NCBI RefSeq assembly: GCF_988242995.1 | Contig: NZ_OZ547043.1 | Length of the DNA: 64,000 nt | Direction: 5' to 3' (one strand) | Shown: in pieces, positions 9,673 to 11,265 of the stretch | Layout: each line of letters opens with the position of its first letter | Position numbering within the stretch: position 1 is the first letter of the stretch | Translations under genes and position numbers: made by a program | Notes under the pieces: model-generated | Database searches by the model: none | What the model was told of the DNA's origin: nothing | Seen by the model: the letters and a program-made list of their open reading frames with translations, nothing else

Positions 9673-11265
9673 TTATTTACACCTATAATTTTCGGGTGAT
9701 GACATTGCCCAGGTTACTCCAGAAGATATGATGTTTGCCGGTGCCCCGGATATAATCTGATTAGATGTAAAAAATTTATTTTCCACAATACAACCGGCAG
9801 ACACATAACATTCATCAGAAATATGTGTTCCTTTTAGCAACATCACACGTGACCCAATCCAAACCCTATCCCCTATATTTATAGGCTGGCCCGGATTTAA
9901 TAAGTAGCCATTGCTATCAAGAAGGGAATGCTCGTCCTGACAACAAATCTTAACATCGCTACCTATAACGCAACCATCTCCTATTTTACAACAATTATCG
10001 CCATTCAAATAAATATCTAGCTGCTTATCAATAATGCATGAGTTTCCAATACATACTTTTCCACCGATATTATTATTCAATATTGATAAGTTATTATATT
10101 TTGAATTTCCTAAATGAACATAACCTCCACTATTTAATAAAATTGTAGAATCCTTAAAAGTGGCTCCATCTTCAATTACCACCATATTATTAACACCACT
10201 GAATTTCAACATTAAACCAGAAACAGATTGATATGTACCATCTGATACATACTCTATTTTATTTCCATATATAATTGTATTCTTATTAACTTTAAAATCT
10301 TTATACTTATGAAATAATGAATATAATTCTTTAATTTTAGATTCAGATTTTGAACATTGCAAAAGTTTAATATCACCTGTAGAAATCTTGTTTATTTTTT
10401 CAATCCCAATGGAATCTTTCCCATAAATATCATATCCAGTTGCATGATCTATATATCGTTTTACGTACTCTTCAAAGTTTATAGACTCATTATAAAATGA
10501 ATAACAATGATCGGTTTTGATAAAGTTAAGGTTCAAATGTTTTATTACACTAGGGTATAAGGGAACGTGAATATGATTTTTAGAAAAAGGATATATATCG
10601 ATATTTCTTTTTTTATTAATTCCCAAACAATCAAGAATGCTATTTGTTAACCATAAAAAATAATCGTTTGTTGGGTGATTTACTGTCACCGACATATAAT
10701 TACTGTAAATAGCATTTTTTAAATATGGTACTGAAGGTATATCAACTTTATTTAATTTTTCACGTTGGTTTAGATCATTAAATGTTTTTGTTAAATTGTC
10801 CGTTATTGTTTTTTCATCATAAAAGTCAGGATCAGAAACGATTTTTATAATGTTTTCTGTGCGAATATTTGCTAACAGCAAAGAATTTATATTTTTATCG
10901 CCGTATGGAAATATTCCTGAAGGAGATATCGAGTATTTCCTATTTGGCCTAATTACAGGATTTTGTGAGTGCTGGGGGAAATAAGCAGAAAGCCAAAAAT
11001 TAGGAATGGATATTCGAATGCAATCCGAACGTAACTTACTACAAATATGATCTGTGCAAAAAAAAGGATCAAAGGTTGACGATACATGTTGATATATAAA
11101 AAGATCAATTTTGGATAATGTATCATCATCCAAATAAGACTTATCTTTTAGATACACATCTTTAACTTTAACTAGATTGAAATAATTTATAAAATCAGTT
11201 TGTTCAAGAAAATTTTGTAGATGTGTATGCTGGCAATTCCCATAAATCATACATAGTTTTTTCAT
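9673..11265 (-). CDS. Region 2 protein with C-terminal hexapeptide-repeat (left-handed beta-helix) acyltransferase domain; putative capsule O-acetyltransferase
   Basis: 530 aa, very AT-rich codon usage; C-terminal third shows repeated [LIV]G-x-x-x-x hexapeptide units (IGDRVWIGSRVMLLKGTHISDECYVSAGCIV); N-terminal 330 aa not recognised. Confidence 0.5.
   Translation of the reverse strand: MKKLCMIYGNCQHTHLQNFLEQTDFINYFNLVKVKDVYLKDKSYLDDDTLSKIDLFIYQHVSSTFDPFFCTDHICSKLRSDCIRISIPNFWLSAYFPQHSQNPVIRPNRKYSISPSGIFPYGDKNINSLLLANIRTENIIKIVSDPDFYDEKTITDNLTKTFNDLNQREKLNKVDIPSVPYLKNAIYSNYMSVTVNHPTNDYFLWLTNSILDCLGINKKRNIDIYPFSKNHIHVPLYPSVIKHLNLNFIKTDHCYSFYNESINFEEYVKRYIDHATGYDIYGKDSIGIEKINKISTGDIKLLQCSKSESKIKELYSLFHKYKDFKVNKNTIIYGNKIEYVSDGTYQSVSGLMLKFSGVNNMVVIEDGATFKDSTILLNSGGYVHLGNSKYNNLSILNNNIGGKVCIGNSCIIDKQLDIYLNGDNCCKIGDGCVIGSDVKICCQDEHSLLDSNGYLLNPGQPINIGDRVWIGSRVMLLKGTHISDECYVSAGCIVENKFFTSNQIISGAPANIISSGVTWAMSSPENYRCK

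Follow-up and report, generated by a model that had tools for sequence, protein, structure and literature searches.

O-acetyl groups influence the antigenicity of capsules, their recognition by phages and antibodies, and their serotype. NeuO of Escherichia coli K1 and OatWY of Neisseria meningitidis W/Y are O-acetyltransferases with solved structures (PDB 3jqy, 2wlc), and the neuO gene carries phase-variable heptanucleotide repeats. Based on published mutagenesis, we take His121 and Trp145 of OatWY, and His119 and Trp143 of NeuO, to be needed for activity. OatC, the capsule O-acetyltransferase of N. meningitidis serogroup C, uses acetyl-CoA as donor and forms a covalent acetyl-enzyme. The E. 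coli capsules K13, K20, and K23 are distinguished by acetylation alone, and their acetyltransferases have been proposed to set serotype via the position of the O-acetyl group (PMC12887879; PMC13171606).

A second described system is WcbI of Burkholderia pseudomallei, which is reported as required for virulence and for which a structure has been available since 2013. WcbI co-purifies with CoA, and when acetyl-CoA is bound its thioester sits between Cys14 and His201 (PMC4104973). The protein showed no acetyltransferase activity in three assays, its acceptor site was not found, and the authors proposed that it acts only together with a partner (PMC4104973). CoA binding is known for B. pseudomallei WcbI only, and no family member has demonstrated acetyltransferase activity (PMC4104973). 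In the searchable literature, the structure paper was the only relevant work on WcbI.

Here we analyzed a 530-aa protein encoded within a 64,000-nucleotide stretch of contig NZ_OZ547043.1 (GCF_988242995.1; hereafter the window) that belongs to both of these families at once. The sequence and fold features that we examined for each were found in it, in an E. coli capsule locus with a published repeat-unit structure.

Locus structure

The acetyltransferase ORF (positions 9673–11265, minus strand) has an ATG start and encodes 530 aa plus a stop codon. Its product is identical to RefSeq WP_024261641.1 (EC042_RS17290), and the opposite strand of 9673–11265 contained no overlapping ORF of 80 aa or more. 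Positions 9600–15800 matched the chromosome of E. coli 042 (NC_017626.1) at 100% identity. RefSeq annotation of the locus shows the classical group 2 kps capsule layout with regions 1, 2, and 3. Region 1 (kpsF-E-D-U-C-S, 1605–9563, plus strand) is convergent with the acetyltransferase gene, and region 3 (kpsT and kpsM for the ABC exporter, 15851–17295, minus strand) lies upstream of it on the same strand. A gsp type II secretion cluster comes after region 3.

Region 2 consists of three genes, annotated as a 231-aa cytidylyltransferase-domain protein, a 1112-aa hypothetical protein, and the 530-aa protein, the last under the RefSeq name "WcbI family ... putative acetyltransferase". The cytidylyltransferase-like gene (CTP_transf_3; 15070–15765, minus strand) is the first of this three-gene cassette and is additional to the kpsU of region 1. 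The 1112-aa product is a capsule polymerase of the KrkA type (11494–14832, minus strand), encoded upstream of the acetyltransferase gene in the same operon. The 530-aa gene sits in a 6-kb stretch of 29% GC, flanked on one side by six plus-strand genes (50% GC) and on the other by the two minus-strand ABC transporter genes. The first-pass annotation had called this ORF and placed it in region 2, and it is a real minus-strand gene within the low-GC region 2 of a group 2 kps locus. Region 2 of the E. coli 042 type is rare, being present in 13 of 5,426 complete E. coli genomes (three matches at ≥99% identity and ten at 88–90%).

We searched for sequence features that might control expression. No tandem repeats were found in or beside the acetyltransferase gene, and we rejected neuO-like phase variation of the gene on that basis. 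Promoter-like and terminator-like sites occurred at a frequency not above that in shuffled sequence. The protein is soluble and cytoplasmic, with no transmembrane segment and a maximum 19-residue Kyte-Doolittle mean of 0.99; a membrane or periplasmic location was rejected because a hydrophobic segment was absent.

Capsule type and polymerase

The kTYPr paper (Nat Microbiol 2026) provides a catalog of all E. coli transporter-dependent capsule loci (PMC13171606). Its domain table lists ORFs with the md5 of each sequence, which we used for identity matching. The md5 of the 530-aa protein matched 'K130_7' and that of the 231-aa protein matched 'K130_9', while the 1112-aa polymerase had the same length as 'K130_8' and a different md5. 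The name K130 does not occur in the final catalog; K74 occurs in the catalog and not in the examined part of the domain table. Because of this pattern of presence, and because the ORF numbering of K130 and K74 is alike, we infer that K130 was a working name of K74. The polymerase gave an independent check on this typing. In strain TUM14771, which encodes a protein identical to K109_9, the polymerase shares 85.3% identity with the 1112-aa protein, reproducing the published identity of K74_8 to K109_8 (85.278%; PMC13171606). The locus is therefore of the K74 type, or very nearly so.

We take the serotype of E. coli 042 to be O44:H18. The K74 type strain is O44:K74:H18, and its capsule has the repeat unit ->3)-beta-D-Ribf-(1->2)-beta-D-Ribf-(1->6)-beta-Kdo-(2->, consisting of ribose and Kdo only, with no amino sugar (PMC5070880). 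The Kdo of K74 is in the furanose form, as is that of K95 (PMC7387560, PMC12887879).

Residues 451–1022 of the 1112-aa protein matched the phosphatase and ribofuranosyltransferase parts of Bcs3 from Haemophilus influenzae (Hib) (E 4e-18; 8a0c/9h50). In this sequence search against solved structures Bcs3 was the only match, and the N-terminal Kdo-transferase part had none. The kTYPr and KrkA papers assign large ORFs of this kind a Kdo-transferase domain plus a ribofuranosyltransferase-phosphatase pair (PMC13171606, PMC12887879), and we took the KrkA/GT140 assignment of the polymerase from the same two sources. The protein fits the ribose-Kdo chemistry of K74 and produces the polymer on which the acetyltransferase is expected to act.

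Domain architecture of the 530-aa protein

C-terminal module. The C-terminal third of the protein (aa ~340–520) contains tandem hexapeptide repeats with a left-handed beta-helix fold, as the first-pass annotation had noted. The module spans aa 340–530 (9676–10248, minus strand) and is of the NeuO/OatWY/maltose-acetyltransferase type. Pfam Hexapep matched at aa 462–495, and the best sequence matches among solved structures were NeuO (E 5e-13, aa 352–522) and OatWY (E 5e-9). NCBIfam gave weak matches to the WbbJ, maltose, galactoside, and WcaF O-acetyltransferases, and also to NeuD/PglB, LpxD, and others. The positions of the catalytic residues are kept: His446 (codon 9928–9930) and Trp469 (codon 9859–9861) align column for column with His121 and Trp145 of OatWY, and with the corresponding His and Trp of NeuO. 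Both residues were kept in 15 of the 16 fused homologs whose sequence covers the region. A helical connector (aa 301–339; 10249–10365, minus strand) joins the two modules, with predicted helices at 305–317 and 319–323 followed by the first beta-helix strands.

N-terminal module. The first 330 residues, in which the first-pass annotation had recognized no motif, contain a complete WcbI module (aa 1 to ~300; 10366–11265, minus strand). Pfam WcbI (PF18588) matched with 110.3 bits against a gathering cutoff of 29.2 (E 1.3e-31), covering profile positions 1–204 of 205. The model covers aa 4–218 of the protein, and family homologs align to about aa 275. Structure prediction, a check that had been suggested with the original call, was informative for one half of the protein only. 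The AlphaFold2 monomer model (15 homologs, mean pLDDT 73) was good over the first ~330 residues, with pLDDT of 30–65 in the beta-helix half. Over the N-terminal part, the two-lobe WcbI fold was found, with a four-stranded alpha/beta N-lobe and a helical C-lobe. The protein thus contains the 311-aa WcbI fold in full, and not a mere fragment.

The residues that hold acetyl-CoA in B. pseudomallei WcbI are retained. Cys11 in YGNCQ and His197 in NHPT align with YGSCQ and NHPT of 4bqn. Cys11 (GNCQ motif, codon 11233–11235) is the equivalent of Cys14 in WcbI, a residue in contact with the CoA thiol or acetyl group, and His197 (NHP motif, codon 10675–10677) corresponds to WcbI His201 (PMC4104973). A search of aa 1–339 against 1.84 billion representative proteins recovered 836 WcbI family members, and we counted residue conservation in 149 of the best members outside the fused family. 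Cys11 was conserved at 138/138 and His197 at 141/141 non-gap positions. Asn10, Gln12, Gln59, Asp123, Arg168, Glu169, Asn196, Pro198, and Pro238 were nearly invariant, and Asp123 (codon 10897–10899; conserved at 139/145 non-gap positions) is a candidate third member of a Cys-His-Asp center. By this alignment, the invariant Cys-His pair and the conserved acidic residues around the thioester cradle look like the signature of a catalytic center, unlike a docking surface.

Stand-alone WcbI proteins were common in the search. The closest of these (P0022 and P0024, both on short contigs) adjoin a KpsC/S-like gene in one case and a GT2-TPR gene in the other. Other fusion partners of WcbI were TPR repeats, glycosyltransferases (GT61, GT4), and a GDSL domain.

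Fused homologs and gene cassette

The fused architecture occurred in about 18 protein clusters, at 37–56% identity to the 530-aa protein and in one case at 96%. Named sources include Desulfovibrio sp. An276 and Avibacterium sp. 21-599. The gene order of cytidylyltransferase, ~1100-aa polymerase, and fused acetyltransferase was also found in Avibacterium, Desulfovibrio, and gut-type metagenome contigs, and was kept in the contigs down to 40% acetyltransferase identity. The cassette was always located among kpsC/S, kpsD, kpsM/T, kpsF, and Kdo-synthesis genes. Because the same order and kps context recur in distant bacteria, the three genes constitute a mobile cassette conserved across phyla.

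Within E. coli, the members of the cassette differ in how far they have diverged. Among the K74, K95-like, and K109 loci, the acetyltransferases share 95.3–97.7% identity with each other and 96.8–97.7% with the window protein, and the cytidylyltransferases share 97–98%. The polymerases share 77–85%. These identities agree with the published K74, K109, and K95 values. The acetyltransferase is thus common to polymers whose backbones differ, and its acceptor presumably lies in something that all of them contain, either a beta-ribofuranose or the Kdo-furanose.

The two modules are also conserved to different degrees, with the WcbI module sharing 44–68% identity across the fused family and the beta-helix module 29–42%. 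Fusions exist in both orders. The family of the 530-aa protein is WcbI-first, and P0050, P0142, P0081, and P0161 are hexapeptide-first. The P0142 locus contains a GHMP kinase, a nucleotidyltransferase-phosphatase, and a sedoheptulose-phosphate-isomerase-like gene, which together constitute a GDP-heptose pathway; this setting resembles the context of wcbI in B. pseudomallei. That WcbI and hexapeptide domains have been joined twice independently suggests that the two families are functionally linked.

Some fused lineages have lost key residues of one module, each such lineage being represented by a single protein cluster. In P0011 both beta-helix residues are replaced (H446F, W469R) and the WcbI residues are all unchanged. 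In P0036 the WcbI module is the degenerate one (C11H, N196F) and matches the family only weakly, and the beta-helix center is intact. P0006 has C11S, a change that conserves a nucleophile. Since the key residues of either module can be lost, the easiest explanation is that each module is able to work on its own.

Proposed function

The 530-aa protein is, with good confidence, a capsule O-acetyltransferase. The first-pass annotation had suggested decoration of the capsule polymer, and this suggestion was well borne out by the closeness of the beta-helix module to NeuO and OatWY, the retention of His446 and Trp469, and the conservation of the gene in ABC-transporter capsule loci. Reportedly, the K74 and K95 polymers are both O-acetylated. 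For the roles of the two modules, we favor a model in which both are separable catalysts that use acetyl-CoA to decorate the ribose-Kdo polymer, while giving it slightly less than an even chance of being correct.

In this model, the beta-helix module would be a conventional acetyl-CoA enzyme, probably a homotrimer with its active sites between subunits as is usual for this family, acting like NeuO and OatWY. His446 would be the base and Trp469 would help to position the substrate. The acceptor would be a hydroxyl of the growing or finished anionic ribose-Kdo polymer before export. The WcbI module would be a second catalytic module, able to act independently of the beta-helix module through what appears to be an intact acetyl-CoA cradle (Cys11, His197, and probably Asp123, Arg168, and Glu169). 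Cys11 would take up the acetyl group as a thioester with assistance from His197, and would then deliver it to a second, different hydroxyl on the same polymer. One protein may in this way install two kinds of O-acetyl group.

The observations on B. pseudomallei WcbI count against this model, as that protein was inactive in three assays and its acceptor site was not found (PMC4104973). In addition, a plain 245-aa hexapeptide enzyme achieves the single-site acetylation of K13/K20 (PMC12887879). The beta-helix module could instead be the sole acetyltransferase, with the WcbI module binding CoA/acetyl-CoA or the polymer/polymerase so as to dock the enzyme, present the acceptor, or regulate. The beta-helix module is fully equipped for catalysis, TPR protein-interaction repeats are fused to many WcbI proteins, and WcbI itself bound CoA tightly in the absence of activity or an acceptor site, for which its authors proposed a partner (PMC4104973). 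This is also the alternative closest to the first-pass annotation, which had suggested polymer binding or docking to the polymerase for the N-terminal domain, and we consider it the strongest rival, though rather unlikely. Across the WcbI family the Cys and His are invariant and the Asp, Arg, and Glu nearly so, which suggests chemistry rather than docking. The acetyl-CoA-holding residues are kept in the 530-aa protein, and its WcbI module is better conserved than the beta-helix module. This pattern of invariance and higher conservation is like that of an enzyme or cofactor site and not of a passive docking domain. Furthermore, P0011 has kept the fusion although its beta-helix His and Trp are gone, an observation not easily reconciled with the beta-helix as the sole catalyst.

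The same protein lends something to the converse arrangement, in which WcbI is the acetyltransferase and the beta-helix is mainly a trimerization and polyanion-binding surface, the 'missing partner' of WcbI. P0011 combines a catalytically dead-looking beta-helix module with an intact WcbI module, the better conserved of the two, and hexapeptide and WcbI domains have been fused independently in two orders, one of them in a heptose locus. We nevertheless regard this arrangement as improbable: the beta-helix His and Trp are kept in 042 and nearly all relatives, which argues for an active module, P0036 shows the opposite loss with a degenerate WcbI and an intact beta-helix module, and WcbI proteins commonly stand alone. 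A third role for WcbI, in which it would remove or shift the O-acetyl groups set by the beta-helix module as a thiol esterase or acetyl-migrating enzyme, was considered together with the SGNH matches that we obtained. The crystal structure, in which the thioester of acetyl-CoA/CoA lies between Cys14 and His201, fits acyl transfer and not sugar-ester hydrolysis (PMC4104973), and editing of this kind appears highly unlikely. We give as little credence to action before polymerization, whether by acetylation of a nucleotide-activated sugar or PRPP-derived intermediate or by N-acetylation of an amino sugar. Many hexapeptide enzymes do act on nucleotide sugars, and the weak NCBIfam matches to NeuD/PglB, LpxD, and others point in that direction. 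However, the best sequence and fold matches were to O-acetyltransferases acting on a polymer or free sugar, and not to nucleotide-sugar N-acyltransferases. The active site of the related KrkA has been described as accommodating acetylated acceptors, and serotype differences have been attributed to separate acetyltransferases (PMC12887879). N-acetylation of an amino-sugar precursor, which the first-pass annotation had named as one of two findings that would overturn its proposal, was rejected outright because the K74 repeat contains ribose and Kdo only (PMC5070880).

In the most far-reaching reading, WcbI would be an acetyl-CoA-dependent O-acetyltransferase with a Cys nucleophile, working beside or in physical association with the hexapeptide enzyme, and the K74/K95 enzyme would be a dual-site capsule O-acetyltransferase amenable to genetic dissection in a convenient host. 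We put this forward as a possibility about which we are more doubtful than convinced. If true, WcbI would represent a new mechanistic class of glycan O-acetyltransferase, with a Cys-His-Asp center and an acetyl-thioester intermediate. RefSeq and the supplement to the 2026 paper already contain the sequence, name, and domain content of the protein, and the N-terminal domain is not new. The message for genome annotation is smaller, as the gene was already correctly named. In the searchable literature we found no description of the WcbI-hexapeptide fusion in two domain orders or of its significance, of the three-gene cassette conserved across distant bacteria, or of lineages in which key residues of one module are lost. 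The main value of the locus is that it makes WcbI function testable in E. coli: WcbI is here joined in nature to a conventional capsule O-acetyltransferase, in a strain that is not a select agent and belongs to a capsule type with a published repeat-unit structure.

Comparison with known systems

B. pseudomallei WcbI (PDB 4bqn/4bqo) is a stand-alone monomer of 311 aa encoded in a 6-deoxy-heptan capsule locus. The module in the 530-aa protein shares only 18% identity with it and, unlike B. pseudomallei WcbI, is covalently joined to a hexapeptide acetyltransferase and encoded in a ribose-Kdo capsule locus. For the chemistry proposed here, OatC offers an analogy, as it has a nucleophile-His-Asp center and acetylates a capsule polymer by a ping-pong mechanism. 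Its alpha/beta-hydrolase fold is unrelated, and its nucleophile is Ser.

The beta-helix module resembles NeuO and OatWY in its left-handed beta-helix and in the aligned His and Trp, and all three proteins are linked to group 2 or ABC-transporter capsules. An acetyl-CoA donor and a polyanionic capsule polymer acceptor, as used by NeuO and OatWY, are likewise expected for the 530-aa protein. Sequence identity to these enzymes is only 21–24%. NeuO and OatWY are single-domain proteins of ~215–250 aa, while the corresponding module here makes up only the C-terminal ~190 of 530 aa, behind a WcbI module. The acceptor is polysialic acid for NeuO and OatWY and would be the ribose-Kdo polymer here, and the phase-variable repeats of neuO have no counterpart in the 530-aa gene.

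The E. coli K13, K20, and K23 loci are similar in combining a hexapeptide acetyltransferase ('VatD', 245 aa) with a KrkA-type polymerase in region 2 of kps. Their acetyltransferases consist of a single hexapeptide domain with no WcbI module, and the loci have no extra cytidylyltransferase. The polymers differ as well, in that K13, K20, and K23 contain Kdo-pyranose and K74 and K95 contain Kdo-furanose.

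Cytidylyltransferase-like gene

Besides kpsU in region 1, the 042 capsule locus carries a cytidylyltransferase-like gene in region 2 (15070-15765, minus strand) whose 231-aa product contains a CTP_transf_3 domain and has weak similarity to PseF, NeuA, and KdsB. The kTYPr identity table places the 231-aa gene in the K74, K95, K109, and K135 loci (PMC13171606). Among E. coli capsules, furanosidic Kdo is found only in K74 and K95, and region 2 of K13, which has pyranosidic Kdo, does not contain the gene. A cytidylyltransferase-like gene was also the first gene of the cassette (cytidylyltransferase-like gene, polymerase, fused WcbI-hexapeptide acetyltransferase) in Avibacterium, Desulfovibrio, and one metagenome contig. 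A KdsB-KdsC fusion is encoded separately in Desulfovibrio, so the cytidylyltransferase-like gene is not simply the CMP-Kdo synthetase. No paper recovered in our literature search addresses where the Kdo-furanose donor comes from; the 231-aa protein may produce it.

Polymerase divergence within the cassette

The middle gene of the cassette encodes the 1112-aa polymerase (11494-14832, minus strand), which ends in a low-complexity tail of ~90 residues rich in Lys, Pro, Ser, and Thr. Across the K74, K95-like, and K109 loci the polymerases shared 77-85% identity, compared with 95-98% for both flanking genes. Given this much faster divergence, backbone specificity appears to evolve, or recombine, inside a cassette that is otherwise fixed.

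Intergenic and boundary features

The polymerase and acetyltransferase genes are separated by 228 bp. This gap contains a stem-loop (~11393-11428, minus strand) whose stem is a perfect 9-bp inverted repeat, GGAGGCATC ... GATGCCTCC, enclosing a 10-nt loop; TATTAAT follows. The terminator scan did not call this stem-loop, which may function in mRNA stability or attenuation. Just upstream of kpsF is an IS110-family transposase remnant (window ~612-794; RefSeq coordinates 3441898-3442080), as would be expected if the capsule locus sat at an island boundary. A DUF4942 gene adjoins the remnant.

Other WcbI fusions

Four proteins have the reverse domain order (P0142, P0050, P0081, and P0161; 680-778 aa), in which a hexapeptide acetyltransferase is followed by a ~300-aa unassigned stretch and then WcbI. 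P0142 (8001-10337 of its locus, L015) is encoded in a polysaccharide locus of the GDP-heptose type, and a second hexapeptide gene adjoins it. Among the proteins recovered with aa 1-339 of the acetyltransferase as query (P0054, P0044, P0071, and P0033), further WcbI fusion partners were a GDSL/SGNH domain, TPR repeats plus a GT61 glycosyltransferase, a GT4 glycosyltransferase, and, very frequently, TPR repeats alone. Many WcbI-family members of ~400 aa had an unassigned N-terminal extension of ~120 aa.
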